This document shows positions 3,262-62,280 of a stretch of DNA of 64,000 nt, piece by piece. Source of the stretch: Candidatus Uhrbacteria bacterium. Its GTDB lineage: Bacteria; Patescibacteriota; Patescibacteriia; UBA9934; GWF2-40-263. Below the pieces are notes generated by a model that saw only the letters and a list, made by a program, of their open reading frames with translations, did not search any database and had not been told where the DNA came from. Location: contig JAHFIQ010000001.1 of the NCBI GenBank assembly GCA_023246355.1, positions 145,887 through 209,886 of the forward strand, in the 5' to 3' direction. A program made the position numbers and the translations under genes. Numbering within the stretch: position 1 is the stretch's first letter; every line of letters starts with the position of its first letter.

Positions 3262-3362
3262 ACGTACTTCTTGTCCTCCTGTGAATGTTGGCTTGGTGAG
3301 GGACATGTCGGATCAAAAACGTGTTTTGAGGCGGCATGTCCCTCACCAGAGCCAACGTACTG

Positions 3363-4262: not shown

Positions 4263-6011
4263 TTAAAACGCTCCTGAGTAAGCAATCGCTGCAACGATAT
4301 TCCAATCTTGATCTGAACTTGGAAGGGCGCCGAACGCGGAAACATACGTGGTGATCGCGGCGGACTCGGCCTCCAAGTCGCGCTCATCATCACTTGGGGT
4401 GTAGCCGTTCACCATGTAATCGATGGCGACCCAATCAGCATCCTCAGATGGAAGACGACCGGTGATGGTTCCAAACCAACCAATGGCTTGCTGTTCAAGT
4501 GTCAGCGCTGTTTCTTCTTCTGCGACCACCTCTTCTACCTCTGCCACCTCATCCACCTCTTCCTCATCTCCTGACTCTAGGAAGTCTGTGTAGGCAAGCG
4601 TGTGTACGACATTCCATTCCATGTCCGTCGATGGCATCTTGGCGTACTTGGCACCGAAGATGACGAGTGCTGCTTGCTCGGCCGCCAGATCTTGTTCTTC
4701 TTCTTCACAGCCGCCGTAGGCAATGCAATGCAGAGCTGCCCAGTCGTCTTCTGAGGAAGGCATGCGAGCATAGAACGCTCCGAAGTAGACGAGCGCTTGC
4801 TGCTCAAGACTTGCAGATGTTTCTTCCTCGACTACCTCTTCTACCTCGTCCACCTCGGCCACCTCTTCCTCCTCTCCTGAGTCAAGGAAGTCCGTGTAGG
4901 CAAGCGTGTGGATGACATTCCATTCCATGTCTGTGGATGGCATCTTGCCGTACTTCGCGCCGAAGGTTACGAGTGCTGCTTGCTCGGCCGCCAGATCTTG
5001 TTCTTCTTCTTCACAGCCGCCGTAGGCAATGCAATGCAGAGCTGCCCAGTCGTCTTCTGAGGAAGGCATGCGAGCATAGAACGCTCCGAAGTAGACGAGG
5101 GCCTGTGCTTCAAGAGAGGCGGAAGATTCGGTGGTTGTTTCTTCTTCGGTCGTCTCCTCTTCTGTTGTGGTTTCTCCCTCTTCAAGAGGTTCAAGGCCTA
5201 GCAATTCCTGTCCAGCCGTTGTGTAAGCCAGTGCGTGAACCGCCTGCCAGTCCATAGAAGAAGATGGGTTGGCACCGTACTTGCTATTGAACTTGGCAAG
5301 CGCGGCAACTTCGTACGTGAGATTGCGATTGTCCGAGTCATAGCAACCGTCATCAGCAATACAGTTATTGGTTTCCCAATCGTCATCACTGGATGGAAGG
5401 CGTCCAAACAAGGCGCCGAAGTAAACCAGGGCAGCTGCTTGATCACTCTCACTTGCACCGTTGCTGTTTGAGCTACTTGTATCTTCTTCGTCAGTTGTTG
5501 CTGGAGCTTCTGATTCAACATCAGCGCCCGTGATCGTGATCCTGGACGATCCAAGTTCACCTGTATCGATGGTTTCTTCACCATCGGAAATCAAACGTGA
5601 TGAATCCTCAACCGCGATCGTTGCTGTTCCGGAGGACAGCGCATGAAAGGTCACGGTCGCAAGGGTGCCAGAGCTCGTCACCGGAGTGCCGAACTTGTAC
5701 GCGCCGTAGCTGAGTGTGCCTGCATCGTTGTCGATGTCATTGGAAGGTGAAAGATTTGGAAACAAGCTTCCAAGATCAAACGACAGCACCTCGACCATAT
5801 CTGGATCGAAGGAAAGATCGACACGAACCGTGTCGAGCGACTCGTCGTTGGCGTCCACGAGTACGCTTAAACTAAAAGAGTCCCCTGTCTCAACGGACGT
5901 GTTGGTAGGAGACAACGACAACGTGGCCGTGGTACCGGCATGCGCCGCTGGAATGCCAACGTTCGCGATTCCCATCGCGAGTCCGAGGAAGAGGACGGCA
6001 ATCTTCTTCAT
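4263..6011 (-). CDS. Cohesin-domain surface protein followed by seven ~45-aa acidic repeats
   Basis: Signal peptide MKKIAVLFLGLAMGIANVGIPAAHA. The cohesin-like N-terminal domain reads SFSLSVLVDANDESLDTVRVDLSFDPDMVEVLSF...GTLSYGAY...TVTFHALSSGTATIAV. It is followed by seven repeats of the unit A-[AL]-V-x-F-G-A-x-Y-x-x-M-P-S-x-[DE]-x-[DE]-W-x-x-[IVA]-H-x-[LI]-A-Y, separated by Glu/Thr-rich linkers. Confidence 0.65.
   Translation of the reverse strand: MKKIAVLFLGLAMGIANVGIPAAHAGTTATLSLSPTNTSVETGDSFSLSVLVDANDESLDTVRVDLSFDPDMVEVLSFDLGSLFPNLSPSNDIDNDAGTLSYGAYKFGTPVTSSGTLATVTFHALSSGTATIAVEDSSRLISDGEETIDTGELGSSRITITGADVESEAPATTDEEDTSSSNSNGASESDQAAALVYFGALFGRLPSSDDDWETNNCIADDGCYDSDNRNLTYEVAALAKFNSKYGANPSSSMDWQAVHALAYTTAGQELLGLEPLEEGETTTEEETTEEETTTESSASLEAQALVYFGAFYARMPSSEDDWAALHCIAYGGCEEEEQDLAAEQAALVTFGAKYGKMPSTDMEWNVIHTLAYTDFLDSGEEEEVAEVDEVEEVVEEETSASLEQQALVYFGAFYARMPSSEDDWAALHCIAYGGCEEEEQDLAAEQAALVIFGAKYAKMPSTDMEWNVVHTLAYTDFLESGDEEEVDEVAEVEEVVAEEETALTLEQQAIGWFGTITGRLPSEDADWVAIDYMVNGYTPSDDERDLEAESAAITTYVSAFGALPSSDQDWNIVAAIAYSGAF
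4560..5170. repeat. Near-perfect 306-bp (102-aa) tandem direct duplication inside the cohesin-repeat gene
   Basis: Sequence 4681-4796 is identical to 4987-5102 (gccgccagatcttgttcttcttcttcacagccgccgtaggcaatgcaatgcagagctgcccagtcgtcttctgaggaaggcatgcgagcatagaacgctccgaagtagacgag). The flanks are about 90% identical. Track ORFs 4667..4915 and 4937..5257 translate to the same peptide, which confirms the period. Confidence 0.85.
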
Positions 6012-6318: not shown

Positions 6319-7629
6319 TTACTTTTCTCCTCTGAACAAAAGCTGAACGGTTTTGAGAAGAATCAGGAAATCAAGAACCAACGATCGGTTTTTTATATAG
6401 TACAAATCGTATTCGAATTTTTTTTGAGAGTCCGTGACAGAACGAGCATAGCGAAATTTAATTTGCGCCCAACCGGTGAATCCTGGTTTTACAAAATGAC
6501 GAACACGATAATGGGGAATCTCTCGCTCAAGCGTTTCCACAAACATCGGTCGCTCTGGTCTTGGTCCGACCAAACTCAACTCCCCTTTCAACACATTCAA
6601 CATCTGCGGCAGCTCATCCAAGTGACTCTTACGCAACAGGTTGCCCACCCGTGTCACACGATCATCGTTCTTTGTCGCCCACTGCGCTCCACTCGCTTCC
6701 GCATCTGCTCTCATGGTACGAAACTTTTTAATCAAAAACGGCTGACGATTTTTCCCAACACGTTCCTGTGTGTAAAAAATAGCTCCGCCTTCCATCTTGA
6801 TCAAAAGGGCGATGAACATCCACAGCGGCAAGGTAAGAAGCAACAGACACGCCGCGACCGACACATCAAAGACACGCTTCAAACGATGCGAGAGACCTTG
6901 ATTGCGCTCCTGAACATGACGAATGAACCACGCGTGATCGATCGTGGAGAGTGGAATTCTCCGTGCGAATAATTCATAGGCTTGGGCGAGATCCAAGAAG
7001 GTCACACCCGTTCCAAGACACGCATAGAGTGATTGAAGGTGGTCACCTTGAGACAAAAATGCGTTAGGAACAATAACCACATCGAGATGATGTCGTTGGA
7101 TCTGACTCACAAGATCCTCTCCTGATGATGTGAGAGACACAGACTCATATCCATGATGCTTCAATGACTGGATAATTTCTGCTAACTCCCCCTCTTGATC
7201 TTGGAGATCCAACAGACCAATCCGCCAAGGAACAAGAGAGGAGATCTTCAGCGAGAATACCAAGCGCCACAGGTACGCGAACAAGCCAAACAGCAGGACG
7301 TGGATAAGGAGGTTCGTCTTAGGACTCAAATCTGTGAGTGTCGTTGCATAGAAAAACAAAACCCCTGTCCCAAACAGCATCACCACTGCAACGCCAAAAC
7401 GCGCCATAAACGACGTTGAGGTCGGCGGCAGAGAGAGGTCGTAGAGATCCATCACATAAAAAACCGCGAGCCAAACCAGATACAGAAAAGAGAACGGGAC
7501 GGCGTGAGCCAAAAAACGCTCTGTATCAACCTGCCCCCAGAACCCAATAAAAAGAGCCAACCACAATGTCCCGTAGAGTAATGCTACGTCTCCTGTTAGG
7601 AGAGCCATTTTCCGAAAAATGAAGCCCAT
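6319..7629 (-). CDS. Undecaprenyl-phosphate sugar phosphotransferase (bacterial sugar transferase, WbaP/WcaJ-like)
   Basis: N-terminal TM segments. The C-terminal catalytic domain reads KRVFDVSVAACLLLLTLPLWMFIALLIKMEGGAIFYTQERVGKNRQPFLIKKFRTM...LDELPQMLNVLKGELSLVGPRPERP...KPGFTGWAQI. Confidence 0.8.
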   Translation of the reverse strand: MGFIFRKMALLTGDVALLYGTLWLALFIGFWGQVDTERFLAHAVPFSFLYLVWLAVFYVMDLYDLSLPPTSTSFMARFGVAVVMLFGTGVLFFYATTLTDLSPKTNLLIHVLLFGLFAYLWRLVFSLKISSLVPWRIGLLDLQDQEGELAEIIQSLKHHGYESVSLTSSGEDLVSQIQRHHLDVVIVPNAFLSQGDHLQSLYACLGTGVTFLDLAQAYELFARRIPLSTIDHAWFIRHVQERNQGLSHRLKRVFDVSVAACLLLLTLPLWMFIALLIKMEGGAIFYTQERVGKNRQPFLIKKFRTMRADAEASGAQWATKNDDRVTRVGNLLRKSHLDELPQMLNVLKGELSLVGPRPERPMFVETLEREIPHYRVRHFVKPGFTGWAQIKFRYARSVTDSQKKFEYDLYYIKNRSLVLDFLILLKTVQLLFRGEK

Positions 7630-7635
7630 ACTACA

Positions 7636-9669: not shown

Positions 9670-11642
9670 TAGAGTTCAAAAATAAGCTGGGCTCGCTTCT
9701 GGTTCACGTCCGCGTTAGAGATGAGACGTATTTGATCTTCCAAGCTTGAGGAAAGCGCATAGGCTTCATTGGCATAGCGCAAAAACAACTCCTGATCACC
9801 CAAAAACTTTACAGCGATCAAACGTTGAATCTGTGATTCAAGAACTGAGGGATCGAGATCAACAGCGGCCTGTGTAAGAGCTACCGCCTCTTCAATTCGA
9901 CTTTGATCAAGAAACACAGCGGCGAGCGCCCAGAGGGGGTGAGGATTGCGTGGATTCAGGTCAATCGCTTTTTTCAGCACTGTTTCTGCATCCTGAAATT
10001 TTGCCGAATTGAAAAATCTCGCCTCTGTGTGATAGAGCAGGCCTAAATGCAACAACGCAATAAGATCATTGGGTGCTCTGGAGGTCGTATCAACGAGGGC
10101 GGTTTCTGAGAGACTGAGCTCTGCGAGGAACTCCGTATTATCCTGGGAAGGATCCGAGAGCATGTCTTTCCAGACCTTTCCCGCTGTTTGACGAGCCAAG
10201 TACCACCGACGCATATCGATGCCAAGTAGAGACCCGTTCACAGCTCGCTCATACAAACTCAATCGTTCCTGGGAGGTTTGAGCCAAGAGAACCTGATCAA
10301 CCGCAAGGTTCCCAAGCACAGGTTGAATCACGGAAAAAAATAGCCCGAAAGGAAGGACGACCGTCGCGACCATTGGAAACCAAACAGGGACAGGCTTGAT
10401 TGGTGAGTGAGCCGACTCCCCTAACCCAGCATATGAAAGCAAGAGGATCCAGAAAAGAAGTGTCACGCCATCATCAAAGCCGGTAAGATTCTGAACAAGA
10501 GAGCCGGCCAAGGCACAAATCACGATCAGAGGAATCACGCCTGAGAAACGACTACGCCACAAGGTCCACAACGTGAGGGCGAAAATACTGAGATAAGAAA
10601 AAAGTCCCATCAATCCTGATGCAACAAGCACGTCAAGAATGATGTTATGAGCACGGTCATACCAAACCTCAATCCCGCAAGGAAGTGACCCAAGACAGGA
10701 ATCATAATGCTGAAAAAACGCTGTCTGAAAATTCTCGAGTCCCCATCCCAACCAGGGGTGTTCTTGCAATGCTTGCCACGCAATATTCCACACAACAAAT
10801 CGCCCACCGTTTGACCTGGAAACAAACGTTTCACGAATCCAACTCGTAGGGTCAGCAAGAGACAGCAGAGCAACAAGAAAACTCAATCCAAGAATGCCCA
10901 GCATACACCAACCGATCTGTTGTATCCCTCTGGTCTTTCCCTTGACGATCAAAAACAAGGAGAGGAACAACACGAGACTCCCCAAAAACGCACCAATGGA
11001 GGCCTGTGCCGTTGAAAGGAAAAGAGCGAGGATGAGGACAGCCGTAGCGATGGCGCTCATCACCCGCAATCGGCCAACGGATTGAGTAGCCAACACGAGA
11101 CTAAAACAAATTTGAAACAGCAGATAGGCACCAAAAAACGTTGAGTTTCCAATCGTTGAACCTGAGTGAGTGGATGAGAGGAGATCAATACCTGCGAAAG
11201 AAAACAGATGCACAGTAGAAACAAGAACCCCAACGATCGTTGAAAGAAGAAAGAATGGTTTCCAATCTTGTGCGGTGCGAAAAACGGAGGAGACGACAAA
11301 AAAAATCAGAACAAGATGGATCCAAAGCAACACGCCAGCCATGCGATCAAGACTCCCCCAAAAACTCAGGACCGGATCACTGCCAAAAAATGCAGAGAGA
11401 GAAAGGACGAGGAGGAATACAACGAGGGCTTTCCCTACACGGTTCGCTCGATACCCGATGGGAGGATGCAAAAAAAGAGACCACACAAAAAAAACGAAAA
11501 TACATTCGCTCACTCCCATGATGAAAAATGTCTTCGTTGACTCAAAATAATACTGCAACGGAGTCCAAAAAAAGAGCGGTGTAAACGCAAGGGCATAAAT
11601 CCCTAAACGAACGAGACGAAGTGAAACAGGCTCTTCTTTCAT
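9666..11642 (-). CDS. O-antigen ligase family + TPR membrane protein (paralog of 7636..9669)
   Basis: RAHNIILDVLVASGLMGLFSYLSIF aligns with the paralog. The C-terminus is TPR-like. The track ORF starts at 11807 but would overlap the divergent gene at 11698. I trimmed the start to M at 11642 (MKEEPVSLRLVRLGIYALAFTPLFFW), which aligns with the paralog N-terminus. M at 11681 is an alternative. The two paralogs overlap tail-to-tail by 4 bp. Confidence 0.65.
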   Translation of the reverse strand: MKEEPVSLRLVRLGIYALAFTPLFFWTPLQYYFESTKTFFIMGVSECIFVFFVWSLFLHPPIGYRANRVGKALVVFLLVLSLSAFFGSDPVLSFWGSLDRMAGVLLWIHLVLIFFVVSSVFRTAQDWKPFFLLSTIVGVLVSTVHLFSFAGIDLLSSTHSGSTIGNSTFFGAYLLFQICFSLVLATQSVGRLRVMSAIATAVLILALFLSTAQASIGAFLGSLVLFLSLFLIVKGKTRGIQQIGWCMLGILGLSFLVALLSLADPTSWIRETFVSRSNGGRFVVWNIAWQALQEHPWLGWGLENFQTAFFQHYDSCLGSLPCGIEVWYDRAHNIILDVLVASGLMGLFSYLSIFALTLWTLWRSRFSGVIPLIVICALAGSLVQNLTGFDDGVTLLFWILLLSYAGLGESAHSPIKPVPVWFPMVATVVLPFGLFFSVIQPVLGNLAVDQVLLAQTSQERLSLYERAVNGSLLGIDMRRWYLARQTAGKVWKDMLSDPSQDNTEFLAELSLSETALVDTTSRAPNDLIALLHLGLLYHTEARFFNSAKFQDAETVLKKAIDLNPRNPHPLWALAAVFLDQSRIEEAVALTQAAVDLDPSVLESQIQRLIAVKFLGDQELFLRYANEAYALSSSLEDQIRLISNADVNQKRAQLIFELY

Positions 11643-11697
11643 AGGATGTATTTGCAAATTGTGTGCCTTTTTTGAAAACATGTAAAATACGGCCGCT

Positions 11698-12660
11698 ATG
11701 CAAAAGAACGTCATTCTCGTCACCGGCGGAGCTGGATTTATTGGTTGCCATGTCGCCAAACGACTTATCGAGCTAGGACACGACGTTGTCATTGTCGACA
11801 ACTTCAATCCTTACTACGATCCATCCTTGAAAGAGGCAAGGATCGCCACACTGCTCAAAGACCTGCCTTTCACTCTGTACAGAAATGACATTCAGGACGA
11901 GCACGCGATGCGGAAAATTTTTGACAGGCACAAACCCAATCTCCTCTGTCACCAAGCAGCCCAAGCTGGTGTGCGCTATGCCACTCAAGATCCTTTTGCC
12001 TACGGACAGTCAAATCTGATGGGCACGCTCACTCTCTTGGAACTGGCTCGAGAGTTTCAGGTACAAGGCATTGTGATGGCTTCAAGCTCGTCAGTCTATG
12101 GCGACGCCGCACACTATCCAGTCAAAGAAACGGACGTGACCGACCAGCCAATCTCTCTCTACGCGGCTACGAAGCGATCCTGCGAGCTCATCGCCTACTC
12201 CTATCATCACCTCTACAACCTTCCTATCACTTGTCTACGCTATTTCACTGTGTATGGTCCTTGGGGACGTCCAGATATGGCGATCTTCTCTTTTACGAAA
12301 GCGGCCATCGAAGGAAAACCGATCAATGTCTACGGTCAAGGCGAAATGGCTCGGGACTTCACCTACATCGATGATATCGTGGATGGTGTCATCAAGGCTC
12401 TTCAAGTGAATCTTCCATGGGCTGTGTTAAACCTCGGTCGTGGAAACGCAGAACCACTCATGCACATGATTCAACTTGTGGAACAAGCGACGGGCGAACA
12501 TCTTGAAAAACGATTCCTCGATATGCAACCAGGAGACGTGAAACAAACGTTTGCGGATGCGAGCCTTGCGAAAGAACGCCTCTCCTGGGAGCCTCACACA
12601 CGCCTGGATGAGGGAGTCGCCGCGTTCGTTGCGTGGTACAAAAAGTACTATGGAGCATAA
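11698..12660 (+). CDS. NAD-dependent nucleotide-sugar epimerase (SDR; UDP-glucuronate/UDP-glucose 4-epimerase-like)
   Basis: VLVTGGAGFIGCHVAKRL is a Rossmann motif. YAATKRSCE is the catalytic Y-x-x-x-K. DNFNPYYDPSLKEAR is typical of the UDP-GlcA 4-epimerase group. Confidence 0.8.
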   Translation: MQKNVILVTGGAGFIGCHVAKRLIELGHDVVIVDNFNPYYDPSLKEARIATLLKDLPFTLYRNDIQDEHAMRKIFDRHKPNLLCHQAAQAGVRYATQDPFAYGQSNLMGTLTLLELAREFQVQGIVMASSSSVYGDAAHYPVKETDVTDQPISLYAATKRSCELIAYSYHHLYNLPITCLRYFTVYGPWGRPDMAIFSFTKAAIEGKPINVYGQGEMARDFTYIDDIVDGVIKALQVNLPWAVLNLGRGNAEPLMHMIQLVEQATGEHLEKRFLDMQPGDVKQTFADASLAKERLSWEPHTRLDEGVAAFVAWYKKYYGA

Positions 12661-13768
12661 AGCTCAAAAAAAAATCGCGGTCTTCTTCACCCACGGGGTC
12701 TCTCTCGAACTCTGGGAAAAACGTGGAATGTTTTCGCGCGAGATAAAATTTTACGAAGCGCTCGCTCATGAGGTCGGTGAAATCTCGTTCTTTACCTACG
12801 GCCGTCACGATGATCGCTACTCCTCACAACTCGATCCTCACATCCGAATTTTTCCCAAACGTCTTCCTGTCCCCAATCTCCTCTACGGAATCCTGTTGCC
12901 CTTTTTACACTGGCGAGAACTTTCCCGAGTCCATCTCATTCGTATCCACCAAGGAGCTGGGGCGATTCCGGCACTCATCGCACATTGGGTCTGGAACAAG
13001 CCATTGATCGTCCGTGCGGGATTCCAATGGTACCTCTTTGCCTCTGGACAACACGCATCACACGCAAAGCTCTGGCTGATCTCGCTTATTGAGCAACTCA
13101 CCTATCGATCCGCGCAGTTTATCATCCATACCACACAACAAGACGCGGACTTCGTCGTGAAGCGCTACCAAATTGACGTGAACAAGCTGCACGTGATTCC
13201 CAACTGGGTCGACACAGACCTATTCAAACCACTGAACATTGAAAAACAGCCGAGGTCCGTCTGCTTCGTTGGGAGATTCGAGGAACAAAAAAACGTTCAG
13301 GTTTTGATCGCCGCTATGAAAGATACTGAGGGAACGCTGATTCTCTACGGCGATGGTTCGCTCAAACGTAAACTCGAAGAACTAGCTCCCGCGCTCCACG
13401 TCAATGCGCAATTCCGTGGTCCCATCGCCAATGAGGAACTTCCTGCCGCGCTCAATGCCTGCGAGATCTTCGTCCTTCCGTCGCTATACGAAGGAAATCC
13501 GAAAGTCCTCCTGGAAGCCATGGCCTGCGGACTTCCAGTCATTGGAACAAACGTTGCAGGAATTCGAGAAGTGATCCATGACAATGAAAACGGAATTCTG
13601 TGCGAACCTCACCAAGAATCAATTCACCAAGCTCTCCAAACCTTGTTGAACGATCGGGCGTCTCATCAGCGTCTTGGATCTGCAGCGCGCAAGACTATTC
13701 TCGCGCACGCGTCCTTACTCAACACAGTGCAGTTAGAAGGGACACTTCTGGACTCCACTCAGGTATGA
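12650..13768 (+). CDS. GT4 family glycosyltransferase
   Basis: The start is trimmed to MEHKAQKKIAVFF. The ATG at 12650 overlaps the upstream stop (ATGGAGCATAA). The C-terminus EGNPKVLLEAMACGLPVIGTNVAGIREVIHDNENGIL is the GT4 E-x7-E region. Confidence 0.75.
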   Translation: MEHKAQKKIAVFFTHGVSLELWEKRGMFSREIKFYEALAHEVGEISFFTYGRHDDRYSSQLDPHIRIFPKRLPVPNLLYGILLPFLHWRELSRVHLIRIHQGAGAIPALIAHWVWNKPLIVRAGFQWYLFASGQHASHAKLWLISLIEQLTYRSAQFIIHTTQQDADFVVKRYQIDVNKLHVIPNWVDTDLFKPLNIEKQPRSVCFVGRFEEQKNVQVLIAAMKDTEGTLILYGDGSLKRKLEELAPALHVNAQFRGPIANEELPAALNACEIFVLPSLYEGNPKVLLEAMACGLPVIGTNVAGIREVIHDNENGILCEPHQESIHQALQTLLNDRASHQRLGSAARKTILAHASLLNTVQLEGTLLDSTQV

Positions 13769-37257: not shown

Positions 37258-37662
37258 ATGGAAGAAGAACAAACACAAACACCTGTTTCAACAGAGGCAC
37301 AGGTACCTGAAAAGCCTGCCGCAGCTGGAAACATCCTCGCGTTGGATCAAGTCCGTGCCGGACAGACCGTGCGACTCCATGAGCGCATTAAGGACGTCTC
37401 GGCCAAGGGCGAAGAACGCGAGCGCGTCCAAGTCTTTGAAGGCATTGTCCTGGGTGTACGGGGCTCGGGGATATCCAAGACCCTCACCATCCGCAAAGTC
37501 AGCGATGGCATCGGCGTGGAAAAAATCTATCCCCTGCACTCGCCACTCATTGCCAAGATCGAGCTGGTCAAAACCGCTCGTGTCCGCCGCGCCCGTCTGA
37601 GTTTCCTCAACAATCTCAAAACACGTTTCAAGAGAAAGCTCGAAGAGACGTACGTGAAGTAA
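37258..37662 (+). CDS. rplS: 50S ribosomal protein L19 with ~25-aa N-terminal extension
   Basis: VRLHERIKD...ERERVQVFEGIVLGVRGSGISKTLTIRKVSDGIGVEKIYPLHSPLIAKIELVKTARVRRARL aligns with bL19. Confidence 0.85.
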   Translation: MEEEQTQTPVSTEAQVPEKPAAAGNILALDQVRAGQTVRLHERIKDVSAKGEERERVQVFEGIVLGVRGSGISKTLTIRKVSDGIGVEKIYPLHSPLIAKIELVKTARVRRARLSFLNNLKTRFKRKLEETYVK

Positions 37663-37668
37663 ATAAAA

Positions 37669-37697
37669 TCCCGGCCACACGGTCGGGATTTTGGTTT
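37669..37697. terminator. Bidirectional hairpin terminator between rplS and the minus-strand GC-rich island
   Basis: AAAATCCCGGCCACACGGTCGGGATTTTGG forms an ~9-bp stem flanked by A and T runs. Confidence 0.5.
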
Positions 37698-37770
37698 AAA
37701 AGAAACACCCCGCCGAACGACGAGTCATCCGGGGGATGTTTCTCGCCGTAGGGCGGAGTCGCGTTGATGG

Positions 37771-38190
37771 TCAGCTCTTGGGGGGCTTTGGGACGATCTC
37801 GGCGGCGTAGAAGTACACCTCCCAGCGATATCCTTCATCCTTGCGGATCTCGATACGAACAAGACCCTTCCAAGCCTGCTCGAGCTCGCGCAACGCCTCC
37901 TCGAGCTTGTCGAAGGAAGTGAAACCGTACACGTGGAGTTCGGTCTCTCGGATCTTGTCGCTGTTGCCGCTGCCCAGGAGGGTGTTCGTGACGAGGTACT
38001 CGAGAAACTCGGGGAGCTTCCAGTACTCGGTATCGCCGATGGTGCTTGGGTACCAACCCATCTCATTGGCGTACTTCTGCATCGAAGACGGAATGAGCTC
38101 GACCAGCTCTGAGGCAAGCTGGCGCCAAACCTGGTTGGCCTCCTGCAGAAGACGCTCTCGATGTTCCCAAGATTCGCGGATGGAAGGCAT
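37771..38190 (-). CDS. Hypothetical protein (GC-rich island)
   Basis: A 139-aa ORF. An RBS (AAGAGGA) lies upstream. The codon usage is GC-rich and unlike the surrounding genome. Confidence 0.4.
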   Translation of the reverse strand: MPSIRESWEHRERLLQEANQVWRQLASELVELIPSSMQKYANEMGWYPSTIGDTEYWKLPEFLEYLVTNTLLGSGNSDKIRETELHVYGFTSFDKLEEALRELEQAWKGLVRIEIRKDEGYRWEVYFYAAEIVPKPPKS

Positions 38191-38212
38191 GAATCCTCTT
38201 TCCGGGGGAAAG

Positions 38213-38318
38213 TTCCAACCCAGATCTCTAGCGTCTTGGTTTCAAAACGACGGGGATCCTTGTTGAAGATTGAATATCCCCGTCCGTCTCAAGCGTTGGG
38301 CGAGACGGACGGGGGTCG
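38213..38318 (-). repeat. ~110-bp intergenic tandem-hairpin repeat, copy R1
   Basis: About 95% identical to 38739..38854. Read on the minus strand, it holds CCGTCCGTCTC-N11-GAGACGGACGG and GACGGGGAT-N18-ATCCCCGTC hairpins, then GTTTTGAAACC, then AGATCTGGGTTGGAA abutting the next gene's RBS. Confidence 0.8.
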
Positions 38319-38330
38319 CGTGGCGAGTGC

Positions 38331-38522
38331 CTACTCGCGGAAGACGGCCTGGGGCATGGTGCCCGTGCCTTCGCACTGACCGCCGCCGAAAGACGGTTCG
38401 TGAGCGGCCATGACGTAGTTGAAGGCCTCTCCTTCGTCGAGGTCGAGATCGTCCTCTTCCGAATCGCTGTGGGACGGACGTACTCTGTGCGACTCCTGAC
38501 AAGTACAACAGGCTCCGAGCAT
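38331..38522 (-). CDS. Small acidic Cys-containing hypothetical protein (63 aa)
   Basis: An AGGAG lies 7 nt upstream of the ATG. The ORF sits inside the GC-rich island, and frame choice is uncertain in high-GC DNA. Confidence 0.3.
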   Translation of the reverse strand: MLGACCTCQESHRVRPSHSDSEEDDLDLDEGEAFNYVMAAHEPSFGGGQCEGTGTMPQAVFRE

Positions 38523-38578
38523 GAGATCTCCTAGCTGAACGGAAGTGTGGTGGGTGCGAGTGTCGTCTTCTTAGGCCT

Positions 38579-38718
38579 CTACTGGAAAGCCCAGCCGAAG
38601 TGACGAACGATCAAGCACAGGAGAAGCGTGATCACCCCTGCGGCGAAACCTTGAAAAAATCCGTTGCGGAACCAGCCGCCAGCGAACACGCCAAGCGCGA
38701 TGCCGAGAATGAGATACA
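38579..38718 (-). CDS. Small 46-aa hydrophobic membrane peptide
   Basis: Hand translation gives MYLILGIALGVFAGGWFRNGFFQGFAAGVITLLLCLIVRHFGWAFQ. It is below the track cutoff. Confidence 0.3.
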
Positions 38719-38738
38719 TCTGAATTTCCTTTCTGGAG

Positions 38739-38854
38739 GAAAGAAATTTTCCAACCCAGATCTCTAGCGTCTTGGTTTCAAAACGACGGGGATCCTTGTT
38801 GAAGATTGAATATCCCCATCCGTCTCAAGCGTTGAGCGAGACGGACGGGGGTCG
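38739..38854 (-). repeat. Tandem-hairpin intergenic repeat, copy R2
   Basis: ttttccaacccagatctctagcgtcttggtttcaaaacgacggggatccttgttgaagattgaatatcccc[a/g]tccgtctcaagcgttg[a/g]gcgagacggacgggggtcg is near-identical to R1. Confidence 0.8.
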
Positions 38855-38875
38855 AGGCGGTCGTGGACCGCGAGA

Positions 38876-39184
38876 TCAGTCGCCTCGTGCGAAAGGGACG
38901 GTCGGGACGATGTTGGGTCGCCTCAGCTCCTTCCAGATTCCGGGAGCCAGCACGCCGTAGAGGTAGGAGCCGACCGCACAGACGAAGGTTCCGACGCCCG
39001 CGAGCCATGCCATCTGCCACTCACCGTTGACGATGCAACGGGCCCCAAGGACGAGGAGTCCCAGCGAGATGGCGGCCATGAACAGCGTTGCAACGGCACT
39101 GATGAACAGAAGCAAGATCATGAGCACGAACCTCACGAGCCGTCCGGCCTTGTATCCGATCATCCTGTAAGAGGCTCCGGGCAT
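38876..39184 (-). CDS. Hypothetical membrane protein (~102 aa)
   Basis: The start is trimmed to MPGASYRM, which is preceded by ACGGAGGG. There are three hydrophobic helices. Confidence 0.4.
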   Translation of the reverse strand: MPGASYRMIGYKAGRLVRFVLMILLLFISAVATLFMAAISLGLLVLGARCIVNGEWQMAWLAGVGTFVCAVGSYLYGVLAPGIWKELRRPNIVPTVPFARGD

Positions 39185-39206
39185 GTGCCCTCCGTTTGGT
39201 GAGAAA

Positions 39207-39237
39207 TGTTCCAACCCAGATCCCTGGAGTCGTCTTG
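39207..39237 (-). repeat. Partial third copy (R3) of the island repeat (conserved RBS-proximal end only)
   Basis: gttccaacccagatccctggagtcgtcttg matches the 5' 30 nt of R1/R2. It lies immediately upstream of the 38876 gene's RBS. Confidence 0.6.
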
Positions 39238-39265
39238 CGACAGACTCCAGAAGCTGAATTTGAAT

Positions 39266-40978
39266 TTAGATCGTTCGCACATCGTCACCAGAGGTGACGC
39301 TCACACCTTTGCCGTACTTCCACAGGGCGGTGTCGTTCACTTCGATGATACCTTGGTTCCAGTCGGAACCATAGATTTCATCAGCGACGGTTTCAGAGAC
39401 GATCCAGTGCAAGTCATAGTCTGATCCGACCACGTAGACGCGCTCTGAGCTCACGGTTTTAACCCGTGTGCCAGGAGCGAACTTGAGGTCCCCTTCGTAG
39501 TCAGACGTTTCCAGGTACACATCAATCGTGGCCTGGCTCACTTCGACCACTTGGTCCCATGAATCAAACCAGGTGAAGTACACTTCCTCACTTGGGATGA
39601 GCCACATTTGGTCACCGCTCACAAGATAAATGCCTTCCGAATCGTAGGCGGAAAACGCCTCGACTTCATCGCGCACCAAATCGAGCAAGGGTGAGAACGT
39701 GGCTTCGTAGATGTTGCCATCTTCTCCCTGCCAGTAGGCATGTTCACGGTCTGAGAGAACCGGCACACCGCCGAATCCAACGTTCAACAGACGGCCATTG
39801 GATGTATTCTCATACCAGACGTTCCCATCCTCATCGACACCCACAAGAATATCGTCAAAGGCGTCAGTCACATGAAACGAACGTGTGTCCCATTCAAGGG
39901 TTTCAAAGTTATAACCAACATAGTCGCCATCTTGATTTTGGAAGTAGATGGAATCCTCGGTGAGATTGAAGATGCCGCCCGAAGCAACACCGAGTTTGTG
40001 CACGCCATCGACGTCACTCACATACAAACCGTTTTCGTCATCGATGTAGGCCATGCGGTCGCCCACAATCTGGACAGCGTCTTCTACATCAATGAGCCAA
40101 GACAAGTACGCGCCGCCAGCGTCTGTTGGGGTTTCGTCAACACCTTGGGTGTAGCTCCACAAACGGAAGTTGCGGAAGAAGCGGATGGAACCATCAGAGA
40201 GGTAATGTGCGCCAACAATGTCCGCACCGGGTTCGGTCCAAGAATCAGGAACCGCTTCCATGGTGCGCGCGGTCTGGTCCACAATCCACAACTGTTCAAA
40301 GCCACCTTCAAATTGAAACTTCACAAGAGCGAGTCCGTCTTGGACGTCAACAATCTCTTGCCAAGGGGCTGTGAGGGTATAGGTGAAATCATCACGCTCA
40401 AAACCAGAACCGTAGTCATACACCGAGAGTGTGGATTCCACATCACCGGAGTCTTCATCGGTTTGCAGAGTGGATGTATAGATGCGGTCGCCATCGGTCG
40501 CAAACGTCATAAACGCGACGCCATTGTCAGATCGTGAAGCACCAGCAAGTGTCGCGATCGCTCCAGACTCGGTATCGTATTCGTACATCGTTCCCCACGA
40601 CTCGTCAGAATCGACCGGGATCATATAAATGAACCGACCATCTTGAGCTGTCTGCCAAAATGCGTCTGTCACAGAGTCGTCAACGGAAGCAACCTCAAGG
40701 GCTTCGCCATCTTTGAAGATGGTGAGGTCAACTTGTTCGCACAGGTCTGGATACTCGCAAGACTCAGCCGTCTTCACAACAAAGACTGCGTCGTTAAACG
40801 CGTAGGGACCAGATGTGTCTGCATCGAGCTTCAAACGCTCAACGCGGAAGTAATCGTAATCCCAGGCCGCGGTGGCGACCGGAGTGCTCCACGATCCAGA
40901 ATCCGCAAAAACGGTTGGAAGCAATGGAGAGAGGGCAATCGCAAGCGCGACGGCCAAAATAAGTGTTTTCTTCAACAT
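39266..40978 (-). CDS. Secreted hypothetical protein (570 aa), Asp/Gly/Trp/Tyr-rich, likely beta-propeller/beta-sandwich
   Basis: Signal peptide MLKKTLILAVALAIALSPLLPTVFA. No recognisable catalytic motifs. Confidence 0.5.
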   Translation of the reverse strand: MLKKTLILAVALAIALSPLLPTVFADSGSWSTPVATAAWDYDYFRVERLKLDADTSGPYAFNDAVFVVKTAESCEYPDLCEQVDLTIFKDGEALEVASVDDSVTDAFWQTAQDGRFIYMIPVDSDESWGTMYEYDTESGAIATLAGASRSDNGVAFMTFATDGDRIYTSTLQTDEDSGDVESTLSVYDYGSGFERDDFTYTLTAPWQEIVDVQDGLALVKFQFEGGFEQLWIVDQTARTMEAVPDSWTEPGADIVGAHYLSDGSIRFFRNFRLWSYTQGVDETPTDAGGAYLSWLIDVEDAVQIVGDRMAYIDDENGLYVSDVDGVHKLGVASGGIFNLTEDSIYFQNQDGDYVGYNFETLEWDTRSFHVTDAFDDILVGVDEDGNVWYENTSNGRLLNVGFGGVPVLSDREHAYWQGEDGNIYEATFSPLLDLVRDEVEAFSAYDSEGIYLVSGDQMWLIPSEEVYFTWFDSWDQVVEVSQATIDVYLETSDYEGDLKFAPGTRVKTVSSERVYVVGSDYDLHWIVSETVADEIYGSDWNQGIIEVNDTALWKYGKGVSVTSGDDVRTI

Positions 40979-41074
40979 AGTTTTTTGGTTAGTTTAAGGG
41001 CGCAATATAGCAAAAAACAGCCGTTTTGTCAATGGGACGGCTGCTTTTTTTAGCTTAACAAAGCGAAATGATAC

Positions 41075-50794: not shown

Positions 50795-51505
50795 CTACTT
50801 CCGGCGAAGACGCAGGGCCCCGTAACCCGGGTCGGCGCTGTCAGAGCTCCCGCTGAGGTGGATCTCCACCTGACCCCTCCACACCCCGAGGTAGGCACAG
50901 CGCACGCGGCGGGCACGGTTCACCGTCCTGGGGAGATCGATGACGTGCTCGTTCTCCACCACGATCGTTGGGTGATGGGCGTAGGCGAAGACGCCTTCGA
51001 GGGCCGTACCGGCCAGGACGTCGCCGACGAGCTCGCCTCGGCAGTGGTCAGGACGGCGACCGCGGTTCTTGCGTCCGTCGTCGTGGCGGAACCAGAACGG
51101 CTCGGTGGGGAGCGGGAAGCGGTAGTCGAAGGGCTTGACTGAGTCCTCGGCGTAGCCAAACTCCTGAAACTGAATGCCCAGCATCTTGCAGGAGCGCAGC
51201 AGTCCCGGTCGCGGGTCGCACAGGGAAAGGAGCGGCAGCTCGGAGTCCTCGGCGACCAACCCTTCCGGAATCTTGGGGATCCCGGCCAGGTACGCCTTGA
51301 AGTTCTTGGCGCCGACCCTCGGATCACGGCCGAAGCCACGATCCCAAAACCGCTTGGCCATGGCCACACGCGGGTCGGTCATCTTGCCGGCGACTCCGCC
51401 GGAGGTGATCTGACGAATGAAGGACTGGAACTCGTCGTGGAGACCCGGTCCATTCTCGTCGAGCTCCAAGAAGTGCCGGAGCTGTTTGGTATTGATGTGT
51501 CCCAT
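50795..51505 (-). CDS. Hypothetical protein A of GC-rich cassette family (236 aa)
   Basis: About 65% GC against a ~50% background. GGAGG lies 6 nt upstream of the ATG. The C-terminal 180 aa are ~75% identical to the 56711..57418 product (PFWFRHDDGRKN...CRGELVGDVLAGTALEGVFAYA.HPTIVVENEH.IDLPRTV...LRLRRK). No known domain was recognised. Confidence 0.5.
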   Translation of the reverse strand: MGHINTKQLRHFLELDENGPGLHDEFQSFIRQITSGGVAGKMTDPRVAMAKRFWDRGFGRDPRVGAKNFKAYLAGIPKIPEGLVAEDSELPLLSLCDPRPGLLRSCKMLGIQFQEFGYAEDSVKPFDYRFPLPTEPFWFRHDDGRKNRGRRPDHCRGELVGDVLAGTALEGVFAYAHHPTIVVENEHVIDLPRTVNRARRVRCAYLGVWRGQVEIHLSGSSDSADPGYGALRLRRK

Positions 51506-51586
51506 TCTATCCTCCGTCCAAGGTCATCCATCGTGGCACCAAAAGGCGGCACGATCGGTTAGACTCTGGGCAGAATGCACGGTGCC

Positions 51587-51680
51587 GCCGTGCCGGTGTG
51601 TGTGCAAAACCGGAGGATTCCGGCTCTGCAAACGACTGGAGAATATACACCCGTTTGGCGGAAAAGTCAAGAATTCGATA
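51587..51680. promoter_or_regulatory. Conserved ~95-bp promoter/leader element, copy 1 (minus-strand promoter TTGACT-17-TATATT at 51642..51670)
   Basis: About 92% identical to 60933..61027 and partially to 57495..57522. On the minus strand it drives a ~125-nt structured leader. On the plus strand it ends 10 nt before the trpS ATG with TTGGCG-18-TATACT. Confidence 0.6.
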
Positions 51681-52711: not shown

Positions 52712-52745
52712 TGCCAAATCAAAACGCCCCTTGAGTGAGGCGGTT
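52712..52745 (-). terminator. Terminator hairpin shared as a repeat (copy 1), downstream of vapC
   Basis: On the minus strand, CCGCCTCACTCAAGGGGCG is followed by TTTTGATTTGG. The 30-nt core aatcaaaacgccccttgagtgagg recurs at 53445..53478. Confidence 0.55.
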
Positions 52746-53444: not shown

Positions 53445-53478
53445 ACAAATCAAAACGCCCCTTGAGTGAGGGGCGGCG
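53445..53478 (-). terminator. Repeat copy 2 of the same terminator, downstream of the Zn-ribbon gene
   Basis: The minus strand reads CGCCGCCCCTCACTCAAGGGGCGTTTTGATTTG. Confidence 0.55.
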
Positions 53479-56710: not shown

Positions 56711-57418
56711 TCACTTCCGGCGAAGACGCAGGGTCCCGCAACCCGGGCTGGCGATGTCAGATTCCCTGTAGAGACTGATCCTCACCTGACCCCTCCACAC
56801 CTCGAGGAAGGCACAGTTCATGCGGCTGTCACGGAGCACCGTCCTGGGGAGGTCGATGGAGTGCTCGTTCTCCACCACGATCGTTGGGTGAAGGGCGTAG
56901 GCGAAGACGCCTTCGAGAGCCGTACCGGCCAGGACGTCGCCGACCAGTTCGTCCCGGCAGTCGTCGGGACGGCGCTTGTGGTTCTTGCGTCCGTCGTCGT
57001 GGCGGAACCAGAAGGGCTCGGCGGGGAGCGGGAAGTTCTGGTTGAAGGGCTCGGCCGATTCCTCACTGAAGCCCAGCTCCTCGAACTGGATGCCAAGCAT
57101 CTTGCAGGAGCGCAGCAATCCCGGCCGCGGGTCGGCAAGGGAGACGAACTCCAACTCGTCATCAACAACGAGGGAGCCGGGAACCTCTGGGATACCTTCC
57201 CAGTAGGCTCTGAAGTTCTTCGACTGCACGTTTGGATCACGGCCGAAGCCCAGAGTCCACAGAGACAGAGCCTGCATCACCCGCAGGCTCACGGGATCTG
57301 CCTCCAGGCCGCGAATGAACTCGTCTACTTGTTCCCCAATCCCGGAAAGGCTCACTCGCCTTCGGGCATCCTGAATCCGAGCCAACTTGACCAAATGCTC
57401 TGCATCAAACAGTGACAT
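56711..57418 (-). CDS. Hypothetical protein B of GC-rich cassette family (paralog of 50795..51505)
   Basis: 235 aa and GC-rich. It has the same C-terminal block and the same final LRLRRK as protein A. Confidence 0.5.
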   Translation of the reverse strand: MSLFDAEHLVKLARIQDARRRVSLSGIGEQVDEFIRGLEADPVSLRVMQALSLWTLGFGRDPNVQSKNFRAYWEGIPEVPGSLVVDDELEFVSLADPRPGLLRSCKMLGIQFEELGFSEESAEPFNQNFPLPAEPFWFRHDDGRKNHKRRPDDCRDELVGDVLAGTALEGVFAYALHPTIVVENEHSIDLPRTVLRDSRMNCAFLEVWRGQVRISLYRESDIASPGCGTLRLRRK

Positions 57419-57485
57419 GACATTCTCCTATCGGACTTTGATGAGGCCAAGGGGCCTCGCACCACGTGCCGAGAACGGGGGGTGG

Positions 57486-57522
57486 AGTATCGTCCCGTTT
57501 GGCGGAAAAGTCAAGAATTGAT
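57486..57522. promoter_or_regulatory. Conserved promoter element, copy 2 (minus: TTGACT-17-GATACT; abuts GT4 start on plus)
   Basis: cgtttggcggaaaagtcaagaattgata matches copy 1, including the gaatt(c)gata tail, and sits 14 nt before the ATG at 57537. Confidence 0.5.
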
Positions 57523-60932: not shown

Positions 60933-61027
60933 GCACGGTGCCGCCGTGACGGTGTGTGTGCAAAACCAGAGGATTCCGGCTGTGCAAACGACTGGAGAAT
61001 ATACTCCAGTTTGGCGGAAAAGTCAAG
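60933..61027. promoter_or_regulatory. Conserved promoter/leader element, copy 3 (minus promoter TTGACT-17-TATATT at 60998..61026)
   Basis: gcacggtgccgccgtgacggtgtgtgtgcaaaaccagaggattccggctgtgcaaacgactggagaatatactccagtttggcggaaaagtcaag matches copy 1. The hairpin CCGGA/TCYGG retains pairing. Confidence 0.6.
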
Positions 61028-61119: not shown

Positions 61120-62280
61120 ATGAGAGTGGGAATAGATGCCAGAATGTTGGGTCCAACAGTGGGTGGAGGCGGACTTGGACGATATGTTGAACAGCTCGTG
61201 CATGAGCTTGGACAGCAGAATCAAAAGAACCGCTTTGTTTTGTTCCTGAAAGAAGCGACACAGGTGGAAAAGGGAGATGAGGGAGACAAGGTGGAAAAGG
61301 GAGATGAGGGAGACAAGGTGGAAAAGAGAATCGTACCTGTCCACTGGTACACACTCAAAGAACAGCTCGTGATGGGACGAGTCATTGATCGAGAGCATCT
61401 TGATCTCGTCCACTTCCCGCACTGGAACGTTCCCCTCTTTTTGAGAACGCCGTTTGTCGTCACGATCCATGATCTCATCTTGCTTGAAGAACCACGATCA
61501 GCCCGCGCCACGACTCGTCACCCTCTTGTCTATGCCCTCAAGTACGCCGCGTACAAAATCATCCTCAAAAACGCTCTTTCAAAATCCCGCGCCATCATCG
61601 CGGTCTCACAATATACGAAGTCTTCGATCCTCAAATTCTTTCCCGAGATTCCCGAAAGCAAAATTTTCGTGATCTACGAAGGAGTAACGAATCTGCCTAA
61701 GACCCCTCCCGACCTCCCCTTGCCAAGGGGAGTAGACACCGTCCTGTACATCGGCAACGCCTATCCACACAAAAACCTCGATGCCCTTCTGTGCGCCTTC
61801 TCGCTTTTCCTCAAGACTCACCCGGACGCCAAGCTGGTCCTTGCTGGACGCGATGACGTTTTCTACCAGCGTCTCCAAAAAGATGCAGCTCAACTGAACC
61901 TCACAGACCACATCCAGTTCATTCCAAATCCGACAGATCAAGATCTTGCAAAGCTCTACCGCAGTGCCACGCTCTTTGTCTTCCCTTCCAAATGTGAAGG
62001 CTTTGGCCTTCCACCTTTGGAAGCCATGAGCTTCAACGTTCCTGTCGTCGCATCCAACACAAGCTCTCTGCCAGAAATTTTGGGCGATGCTGCTGTCTTC
62101 TTCAATCCAAAAGACCCTCAAGACATCGCCAGGGCTATGGAGCACGTCTTTGACAATCCAGCATTACAAGAAGAGCTCAGAAAAAAAGGTCTTGAATGCA
62201 TCAAACGCTACTCCTGGAAGAACATGGCAGAGCAAGTCCTCTCAATCTACGAATCCTGTGACAAAAAAGAAGCCTCTTAA
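61120..62280 (+). CDS. GT4 family glycosyltransferase with an internal KGDEGDKVE tandem repeat
   Basis: The start is trimmed to MRVGIDARMLG. The C-terminus reads KCEGFGLPPLEAMSFNVPVVASNTSSLPEILG. A 27-bp unit recurs 2.3 times at 61263..61325. Confidence 0.75.
   Translation: MRVGIDARMLGPTVGGGGLGRYVEQLVHELGQQNQKNRFVLFLKEATQVEKGDEGDKVEKGDEGDKVEKRIVPVHWYTLKEQLVMGRVIDREHLDLVHFPHWNVPLFLRTPFVVTIHDLILLEEPRSARATTRHPLVYALKYAAYKIILKNALSKSRAIIAVSQYTKSSILKFFPEIPESKIFVIYEGVTNLPKTPPDLPLPRGVDTVLYIGNAYPHKNLDALLCAFSLFLKTHPDAKLVLAGRDDVFYQRLQKDAAQLNLTDHIQFIPNPTDQDLAKLYRSATLFVFPSKCEGFGLPPLEAMSFNVPVVASNTSSLPEILGDAAVFFNPKDPQDIARAMEHVFDNPALQEELRKKGLECIKRYSWKNMAEQVLSIYESCDKKEAS

Follow-up and report, generated by a model that had tools for sequence, protein, structure and literature searches.

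A hypervariable gene-cassette array with conserved hairpin modules at one chromosomal locus of Candidatus Uhrbacteria

To our knowledge, integrons are the only well-understood system for stockpiling and shuffling promoterless gene cassettes. A complete integron requires the integrase IntI, and clusters of attC sites lacking integron integrases (CALINs) are by definition without it. An attC site is defined by its R''/R' boxes, a central spacer left unpaired, an L box bearing extrahelical bases and a terminal structure that varies (PMC2727003, PMC4889954). IntI acts on the bottom strand of these sites, which are 57-142 nt long (PMC2727003), and CALINs without a nearby intI are common (PMC4889954). 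Here we describe a cassette array in a 64,000-nt stretch of Candidatus Uhrbacteria DNA (assembly GCA_023246355.1, contig JAHFIQ010000001.1, positions 145,887-209,886 of the forward strand), hereafter the window. The array occupies window positions 37,698-39,265, where structured intergenic modules lie among four small open reading frames (ORFs), A, B, C and D, all on the minus strand. Our literature search found no paper on integrons in this phylum, none joining Uhrbacteria with gene cassettes, and none describing such arrays in Uhrbacteria or Candidate Phyla Radiation (CPR) bacteria.

Hairpins between cistrons are familiar from other systems. In enterobacterial operons, the GC-rich intercistronic hairpins of repetitive extragenic palindromes and bacterial interspersed mosaic elements (REP/BIME) can block exonucleases and so set relative gene expression. 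The RNase III hairpins of phage T7 early genes are also intercistronic, and their cleavage leaves the upstream message with a protective 3' hairpin. Correia repeat enclosed elements of Neisseria (CREE, or nemis) are co-transcribed intercistronic hairpins that RNase III can cut, which sets the relative expression of their neighbours (PMC2649163). The Uhrbacteria modules resemble REP/BIME and Correia elements in lying between the cistrons of what appears to be one transcript. However, those elements occur as tens to hundreds of dispersed copies mobilised as units, whereas the Uhrbacteria element keeps to one locus and the genes around it vary. As in T7 RNase III sites, the predicted stem spans about two helical turns with small internal loops, but T7 sites have no association with gene shuffling.

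In overall organisation the locus parallels chromosomal integron arrays. Like Vibrio cholerae repeat (VCR) arrays and CALINs, it consists of tandem, promoterless small ORFs in the same orientation, mostly of no assigned function. Sedentary integron arrays also carry an imperfect-palindrome repeat with a conserved base and variable apex after each ORF, and the repeats are highly similar within one array. They too sit at a fixed chromosomal locus behind a single upstream promoter, with cassettes whose composition is unlike the host's and whose content and order differ between close relatives. Unlike integron arrays, the Uhrbacteria array showed no IntI in the ~62 annotated kb of the window or the flanks searched. 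Its junction is a composite of three hairpins, which we call H0, H1 and H2, spanning 110-270 nt. Unlike attC, H2 has no 5-6-nt unpaired central spacer and no extrahelical base, and it does not score as attC under a covariance-type control. Homology breakpoints fall at two positions, and the last gene has no site downstream.

Related genomes carry the same modules at the same locus with different genes. At least 11 related Uhrbacteria contigs share the modules between a gene for a 570-aa secreted protein and rplS, and the genes between the modules differ in identity and order (L005-L015, also L017, L019 and L021; Table 1). An original prediction, made from the letters of the window alone, had likened the gene-repeat order to a cassette array, and these relatives bear that impression out. 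In L005 the order is uvrA, the 570-aa gene, small GC-rich genes and rplS. Gene A, last in the window, is third in L005 and first in L008, and its homologs are confined to these other arrays (56% and 50% identity, respectively). Homologs of gene D likewise lie in other arrays (L007/L009, 44%; L017, 33%; L019, 30%). Empty sites exist as well, in more distant relatives: in L016 and L018, whose 570-aa homologs share 68% and 53% identity with that of the window, the stop codon is followed directly by a terminator and rplS. L017 (70%) is in a one-gene state, with a first-site H2 and a D-like gene, and L020 has a deletion remnant. The array is thus a tandem series of same-orientation, mostly promoterless cassettes whose content varies among relatives.

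The modules are specific to this locus and clade. We scanned for the H1 pattern across 185,579 species genomes and found three loci, two in Candidatus Uhrbacteria and one labelled Gammaproteobacteria; a metagenome collection gave seven loci and viral contigs gave 0 matches. All of these loci carry array modules, the 570-aa gene is present in every one with enough upstream sequence, and the short contigs overlap longer arrays. L007 (CAYHRJ010000002.1) was deposited in an 'uncultured Gammaproteobacteria' metagenome-assembled genome (MAG). Its Uhrbacteria-type uvrA, 570-aa gene and array stand in the same synteny, so the contig is probably mis-binned. The 570-aa family itself comprises 59 clusters, and the source names given are all Uhrbacteria, Parcubacteria or Patescibacteria. 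Within 209 kb, a covariance model made from the aligned H2 copies found the element at array sites only, three of them in the window, and not at the many unrelated positions expected of a generic dispersed repeat. Separately, the metagenome contigs L002-L004, L020, L021 and -4rglPGV start or end inside or beside junction modules. Short-read assemblies apparently break up at the repeats here, and MAGs may therefore understate the length of the arrays.

In the window, the repeat takes two full forms and one divergent form. A direct-repeat search defined R1 (38213-38318) and R2 (38749-38854), each 106 nt and 98% identical, with 2 mismatches, both within hairpin 1. The original prediction had recognised a real repeat and placed R1 correctly, while starting R2 at 38739 and putting the identity at ~95%. 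A third site, 39202-39231, has the last ~25 nt of R1 and R2 in common, and in the 64 kb we counted the 23-nt core TTCCAACCCAGATCTCTAGCGTC 3 times versus 0 expected (none in 100 shuffles). R1 and R2 fold better than shuffles (z = -3.9 to -4.2), with two independent structures per full copy. The repeat precedes C and A, and its divergent form precedes D. C and B are separated by a plain 56-nt spacer without the element, so the units are D, C+B and A; the initial description of four genes parted by the element holds at the D/C and B/A junctions and fails at C/B.

Each junction, read on the coding (minus) strand, runs from a cassette stop codon to 23-30 nt before the next start codon and consists of H0, H1 and H2. 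H0 is a small hairpin after the stop codon. The sequence found after gene D recurs after unrelated genes in L007 and L008, and the two window H0 stems differ in sequence with pairing kept. H1, a very stable hairpin, has an 11-nt loop on a GC stem of 13 bp, CCCCGTCCGTCTC/GAGACGGACGGGG, where an 11-bp stem had been proposed. After H1 comes AUAUUCAAUC in the window and CGUCUCAC in relatives, so it has no U-tract, unlike genuine terminators of the window genome. In relatives, H1 reads CGCGAC-CCCCGTCCGTC...GACGGACGGGG-CGTCTCAC.

H2 is a three-tier hairpin of ~54 nt (51-57 nt in most copies). Its outer stem pairs UUCAAC with GUUGGA, its middle stem is built on GAUC/GAUC, and its apical hairpin carries GUUUUGAAACC, which had been taken for a tail after the hairpins. 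The apex varies and the 3' arm GRGATCYGKGTTGGA is invariant, ending 23-30 nt before the following start codon and ~10-15 nt before the Shine-Dalgarno sequence (SD), not the 20-30 nt before the SD first reported. Relatives end H2 in G[GA]GATCCGTGTTGGA and the window's subgroup in GATCTGGGTTGGA. The predicted structure stacks stems of 8 + 7 + 7-13 bp into a coaxial duplex of ~22-28 bp with small internal loops.

The first site has a form of its own. Behind the 570-aa gene there is always an H2 (5' arm TCAAACACAGCCTCT, variable apex, same 3' arm) and never H0 or H1. In the window this H2 begins 2 nt past the 570-aa stop codon and finishes 25 nt before gene D. It had been described as a truncated third repeat, R3, yet it is a complete hairpin at 39210-39263 and scores as high as the H2 of R1 and R2 (53.6 versus 52.2 bits). 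Before some cassettes a second leader type, GCCTTTCGACACCTG...CAGATGTGGGAAGACAA, stands in place of H2, and the last gene of each array has no module downstream. The full plan in relatives is stop codon, H0, H1, optional perfect palindromes, H2, a cassette-specific 5' untranslated region, a ribosome-binding site (RBS) and the ORF. The palindromes, perfect over 14-16 bp (GTCACATATGTGAC, TGTCCGATCGGACA, TGTCCCGATCGGGACA), occur in the H1-H2 linkers of the longer modules, in L008 (e.g. 6560-6470), L011/L012 and L014; the short modules of the window lack them. These palindromes resemble operators for dimeric DNA-binding proteins, or extra RNA hairpins. GATC is strikingly frequent across modules.

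Homology between arrays breaks off at conserved module segments. The RNA-ligase cassettes of L012 (2374-3141) and L014 (1549-2314) are 82% identical, starting at the H2 3' arm's first base, although the cassettes upstream of them are unrelated. L007 and L009 are 99.87% identical over 1521 nt and diverge completely 5 nt past H1. Modules flanking one cassette can be near-identical (98% for R1/R2; 93-100% in L011/L012). Breakpoints at two positions within conserved segments fit recombination by shared homology better than cleavage at a fixed nucleotide.

Covariation points to H2 acting as a folded structure. We aligned 20 distinct H2 copies and scored them against the three-tier structure. Paired cells made up 83% of the total, compared with 31-49% in slid controls, and 12 of 24 pairs had changed on both sides. 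The covariation score was 0.42 versus 0.25 in shuffles, a value reached by 0 of 500. The 3' arm is nearly invariant, and the 5' arm varies yet stays complementary, often through G.U pairs. Judging from these comparisons, the H2 structure is under selection. G.U exceeded A.C on the sense strand in the outer (16:2) and inner (22:7) stems and not in the middle stem (28:31), in cells that are not independent events; the sense strand folded at a mean energy of -28.8 and the antisense at -27.0. This asymmetry is indirect evidence that hints at the sense strand. H1 behaves differently. Its 11-bp core stem is invariant in 15 distinct copies bar one compensatory variant, CCCTGTCC/GGACAGGG, and its loop varies freely.

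The array appears to be read from a single promoter outside it. A sigma-70 promoter scan found no promoter-like site in 37500-39500, modules included, and the scan detected strong promoters at other GC-rich islands of the window genome. A terminator scan of the same interval returned two sites: 37724-37709 at the array end, and a weak match inside gene D (39138-39118; 7 pairs, 3 G-C). None lies between the 570-aa stop codon and gene D, and H1 is not called by the scan that calls the array-end site. Of the original label, a portable terminator or intergenic module, the portable intergenic module is therefore a fair description and the terminator is not. A near-consensus promoter lies 26 nt 5' of the 570-aa start codon. 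That promoter, the promoterless array and the array-end terminator together point to one transcript carrying the 570-aa gene, D, C, B and A; we infer that it starts at the 41032 promoter and stops at the ~37700 terminator. The canonical terminator GAGAAACAYCCC...GGGGTGTTTCTTTT closes all arrays. It is common to L008, L009, L014, L019 and L020, and its region in the window matches L008 at 89.8% over 49 nt and L009 at 89.9% over 69 nt.

Cassette genes are compositionally distinct and mostly without family. GC content at third codon positions (GC3) is 0.70-0.79 in A-D against 0.526 +/- 0.039 in 14 background genes, and the GC excess falls mostly at those positions. The locus is indeed the GC-rich island first described, and a compositional check sets it apart. 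A-D and most other cassette proteins have no family assignment from Pfam, NCBIfam or PHROGs; the RNA ligase of L012/L014 (PF09414, E = 2e-23) has one. No homologs of B or C were found. Protein A has one non-identical homolog among 5.8 billion proteins, encoded in the syntenic locus of L005, and its AlphaFold2 model (mean predicted local distance difference test score, 61.7, from a 2-sequence alignment) was too poor for a fold search. The first cassette of L021 gave a weak, sub-threshold match to a Rep family (ORF2/G2P, E = 0.002). An HUH nuclease acting on the hairpins is an attractive idea, but searches against PHROGs and PDB sequences lent the match no support and we dropped it.

Table 1. 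Features of the window locus, in order along the minus strand, followed by the cassette content of arrays
Feature	Position	Strand	Description
Promoter of the 570-aa gene	41004..41032	-	TTGACA-17-TATATT, TG-extended, near-consensus sigma-70-type, 11/12 match
570-aa secreted-protein gene	39266..40978	-	conserved; carries a signal peptide, without a Pfam family; the array's fixed left anchor
First-site H2 (R3)	39210..39263	-	own 5' arm and apex, common 3' arm GGGATCTGGGTTGGA; 53.6 bits, E = 4.5e-15
Gene D	38876..39184	-	102-aa predicted membrane protein; cassette 1
H0 after gene D	38857..38871	-	GCGGTC-CAC-GACCGC, small post-stop hairpin
H1 of R2	38814..38850	-	13-bp stem CCCCGTCCGTCTC/GAGACGGATGGGG with one G.U pair, 11-nt loop, no U-tract
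H2 of R2	38750..38803	-	three-tier imperfect hairpin, 3' end GAGATCTGGGTTGGA, 30 nt before gene C; 52.2 bits
Gene C	38579..38719	-	46-aa hydrophobic ORF with RBS, GC3 0.70; cassette 2, first gene
Gene B	38331..38522	-	63-aa acidic, Cys-containing ORF with RBS, GC3 0.72; cassette 2, second gene
H0 variant	38323..38338	-	GCGAGT-AGGC-ACTCGC, overlaps the stop codon of B
H1 of R1	38278..38314	-	perfect 13-bp stem; -28.1 kcal/mol alone
H2 of R1	38214..38267	-	23 nt before gene A; 52.2 bits
Gene A	37771..38190	-	139-aa ORFan; last cassette in the window
Array-terminal intrinsic terminator	37698..37744	-	GAGAAACATCCCC...GGGGTGTTTCTTTT; GC hairpin followed by a U-tract
Bidirectional terminator	37665..37695	.	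common to the array and convergent rplS; right border of the locus
rplS	37258-37662	+	convergent, downstream of the array
Window cassettes			D; C+B; A
L005 cassettes			lipoprotein; F; A; 211-aa gene
L006 cassettes			lipoprotein; 75-aa membrane protein
L007 cassettes			lipoprotein+D; X; 211-aa-type gene
L009 cassettes			lipoprotein+D; X; 242-aa gene (99.87% identical to L007)
L008 cassettes			A; F; tiny ORF
L012 cassettes			240-aa gene; RNA ligase
L014 cassettes			lipoprotein; RNA ligase; lipoprotein paralog+F
L019 cassettes			D; X; no module between D and X

We favour a reading in which the modules punctuate a co-transcribed message at the RNA level and their conserved sequence doubles as a crossover point, and we put its probability at roughly 55%. 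One clade of groundwater Uhrbacteria carries a hypervariable, clade-specific cassette array between the 570-aa gene and that gene's terminator. In the sense-strand RNA the hairpins would fold and so set off the cistrons of the polycistronic message from one another: H1 would be a barrier at the 3' end of the upstream cistron, or a weak attenuator for it, and H2 a processing and/or 5'-protective structure for the downstream one. As modelled, H2 has the duplex of ~20 bp or more expected of an RNase III-type intercistronic hairpin. Modules conserved between otherwise unrelated cassettes would also provide portable homology. Recombination through it could add, remove, duplicate and rearrange cassettes, and the near-identical R1 and R2 would then reflect a recent event of this kind, or gene conversion.

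Several observations weigh against this reading. We infer co-transcription, processing and stabilisation alike. The near-invariant H1 stem, conserved in 15 distinct copies beside a free loop, argues for sequence-specific protein recognition beyond the needs of a purely structural RNA role. The H2 3' arm, at 15 nt, is short for RecA-type homologous exchange. The middle-stem G.U excess that a sense-strand RNA might show is not significant (28 versus 31, from cells that are not independent), and G.T pairs are likewise present on the top strand of real attC sites. Finally, the high GC3 of the cassettes has no explanation under RNA punctuation.

An alternative is a site-specific cassette platform, an integron analogue in which a recombinase from another part of the genome would act on H2 and/or H1 as folded recombination sites. 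It would use the site following the 570-aa gene as an attI-like entry point, and the promoter of that gene would be the equivalent of the integron cassette promoter, Pc. Point for point the layout is integron-like: promoterless, same-orientation ORFs stand behind one strong promoter, and after each comes a structured repeat whose apex varies and whose base is conserved; the first site is distinct in having neither H0 nor H1; and relatives shuffle cassette content and order. One of the homology boundaries lies inside the 15-nt core, which contains GTT, and the H1 stem is conserved despite its free loop, as for a site recognised by a protein. A circular intermediate predicts that a cassette's leading core pairs with its own 3' hairpin, and in L014 GTTGAA pairs perfectly with TTCAAC. 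Yet this test was mixed overall, the other cassettes being neutral or contrary. Homology also breaks both at the H2 3' arm and at the 3' end of H1, rather than at one nucleotide, and the last gene of each array lacks the expected site. Moreover, the gene and Pfam tables, covering ~62 of the window's 64 kb, list no member of a recombinase family, nor do the flanks of 6-10 kb in seven relatives (L005, L016-L021). We consider this platform unlikely, if less so than the other alternatives.

A related proposal is a hitherto unrecognised capture platform in CPR bacteria, in which the H1 stem and/or an attC-like H2 would be sites for a non-IntI recombinase encoded elsewhere. Cassettes would enter behind the 570-aa gene, whose promoter would express them once captured. 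The conservation of the H1 stem, the GC3-rich cassettes and the shortness of the 15-nt cores available for exchange go without explanation under RNA punctuation and so leave room for a dedicated recombination system. We hold this version to be rather unlikely as well.

A cis-regulatory leader, whether attenuator or riboswitch-like, would have alternative pairing of the H1 3' arm control readthrough; we find this improbable. The window's H1 3' arm can pair downstream to form a 9-bp hairpin (GACGGGGAU/AUCCCCGUC) and is followed by GUUUUG, and in most relatives it can pair with the following CGTCTCAC (GTGAGACG-N7-CGTCTCAC). Small hairpins after H2 also partly cover the SD in the window copies. 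However, the 9-bp hairpin reuses the H1 3' arm and so competes with H1, and the alternative fold is ~10 kcal/mol worse (-39.0 versus -49.3 kcal/mol for H1 with H2); H1 would also form first during transcription. No pairing equivalent to the 9-bp hairpin was seen in the related modules read, and the alternative pairings differ between window and relatives, so neither is conserved. The 9-bp hairpin, offered originally as one of two perfect hairpins in an element possibly used for regulated readthrough, was rejected as terminator or switch on these grounds, and no evidence of a switch emerged. Rfam 15 gave no array match at gathering score and, at E <= 10, only chance-level overlaps with modules (<=15.7 bits, E >= 4.8). 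No conserved region resembles a ligand pocket; the variable part consists of a plain perfect stem.

Tests against real attC sites make a degenerate canonical integron, a CALIN in which H2 is attC for an IntI-type integrase, very improbable. Such a reading can draw on H2's length of 51-57 nt in most copies, at or slightly under the minimum of the attC range (PMC2727003), on the frequency of arrays without a nearby intI (PMC4889954), and on the module ends. In the window these read CTTCAAC and GTTGGAA, each 6/7 against RYYYAAC and GTTRRRY, and L008 has a perfect pair, GTTCAAC/GTTGGAC. The original prediction rejected any match to the attC core; the window indeed has no perfect match, and its ends, though closer than that prediction held, are only near-matches by sequence. 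L005 copies, however, read GCTGGAA and GTTTGTA at the GTTRRRY end, and five copies carry TCCAGC where ...AAC is expected.

As controls we took seven real attC sites from class-1 integrons on plasmids and built a home-made model from them. All seven controls have 7 bp, a 5- or 6-nt spacer, 3 bp, a bulged base and then 6 bp or more. In H2 the outer stem is 8 bp, the loop 0-1 nt (3x4 in first sites) and the middle stem 7 bp, with no bulge there; a variable apex is the sole feature it has in common with attC geometry. The model, narrower than IntegronFinder's, gave 37.8 bits (E = 9e-8) to an attC held out of it. Run unfiltered at E <= 10, it returned none of the window H2 sites, its best match elsewhere scoring 7.2 bits; the best H2 in L008 reached 6.9 bits (E about 1). 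In addition, indirect evidence from the G.U pairs of H2 leans towards the top strand, not the bottom strand on which IntI acts, and no intI gene or pseudogene was seen in the annotated window and flanks, in line with the original report of no integrase nearby. Failing the geometry and the model, and lacking a recombinase in these tables, the locus has an integron-like architecture and is neither integron nor CALIN by the tests run.

A mobile non-autonomous repeat (a REP, a REP doublet forming a hairpin (REPIN) or a transposable element of the miniature inverted-repeat type (MITE)) inserted between existing operon genes is highly improbable: the modules are palindromic, intergenic and co-oriented with genes, as are co-transcribed, RNase III-binding REP and Correia elements (PMC2649163, PMC3184786), and several metagenome contigs break at the repeat, but it occupies one locus in 209 kb and in every genome or metagenome match, its ends (CGACCCCC... 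and ...GGGTTGGAA) are not mutual inverted copies, no terminal inverted repeats or target-site duplications were seen in the sequences read and no transposase near the array in the gene tables, and what varies among genomes is the genes between modules, not the presence of the repeat.

The surroundings of the array carry other accessory modules. In L018, an RVT_1 reverse transcriptase and a bAvd accessory gene (6408-7847), hallmarks of a diversity-generating retroelement, lie immediately 5' of the 570-aa homolog (53%); the retroelement's target may be the 259-aa gene just 5' of bAvd, or the 570-aa gene. L005 has lower-GC DUF2283, AbiEii and HepT/MNT toxin-antitoxin-type genes beside the array (11449-13187) and upstream of uvrA (3157-4037), each set with its own terminators. 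The array neighbourhood appears to be a general accessory-gene hot spot.

The window contains further repeats away from the array. A second minus-strand family (51577-51671, 60933-61027 and 57485-57519; 95% identical over 95 nt) comprises a near-consensus promoter, TTGACT-17-TATATT, and a structured leader. It precedes GC3-rich ORFans at 50795..51505 and 56711..57418, which are 87%-identical paralogs, and at 59935..~60950; their GC3 of 0.73-0.83, against a background of 0.53, is an array-like compositional signature. Identical 26-nt terminator hairpins, CAAATCAAAACGCCCCTTGAGTGAGG, lie 731 nt apart (52715-52740 and 53446-53471) and bracket PIN and ribbon-helix-helix toxin-antitoxin genes, a pair that looks like a small inserted module with a duplicated terminator on both sides. 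ORF 4263..6011 encodes a cohesin-domain surface protein with a 306-nt in-frame tandem repeat, 90% identical (4515-5120), and the adjoining ORFs have cohesin and weak dockerin matches. A perfect 27-nt tandem duplication lies at 61262-61315, in a region where a minus-strand ORF of 511 aa and a glycosyltransferase gene on the plus strand overlap; one of these ORF calls is therefore probably overlong.

An ultra-small groundwater Uhrbacteria clade thus keeps a hypervariable array of ORFans and an RNA ligase at one fixed site, without recognisable integrase or attC in the sequence covered. The modules would explain the assembly breaks at this locus, and the H1 stem CCCCGTCCGTC/GACGGACGGGG and H2 arm GRGATCYGKGTTGGA offer precise handles for finding such arrays and their cassettes in metagenomes. 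If the modules provide only RNA punctuation and homology, ordinary parts would have sufficed for a reduced genome to build an integron-like locus for accessory genes. If the modules prove to be true recombination sites, the array would represent a second, independent invention of cassette capture.

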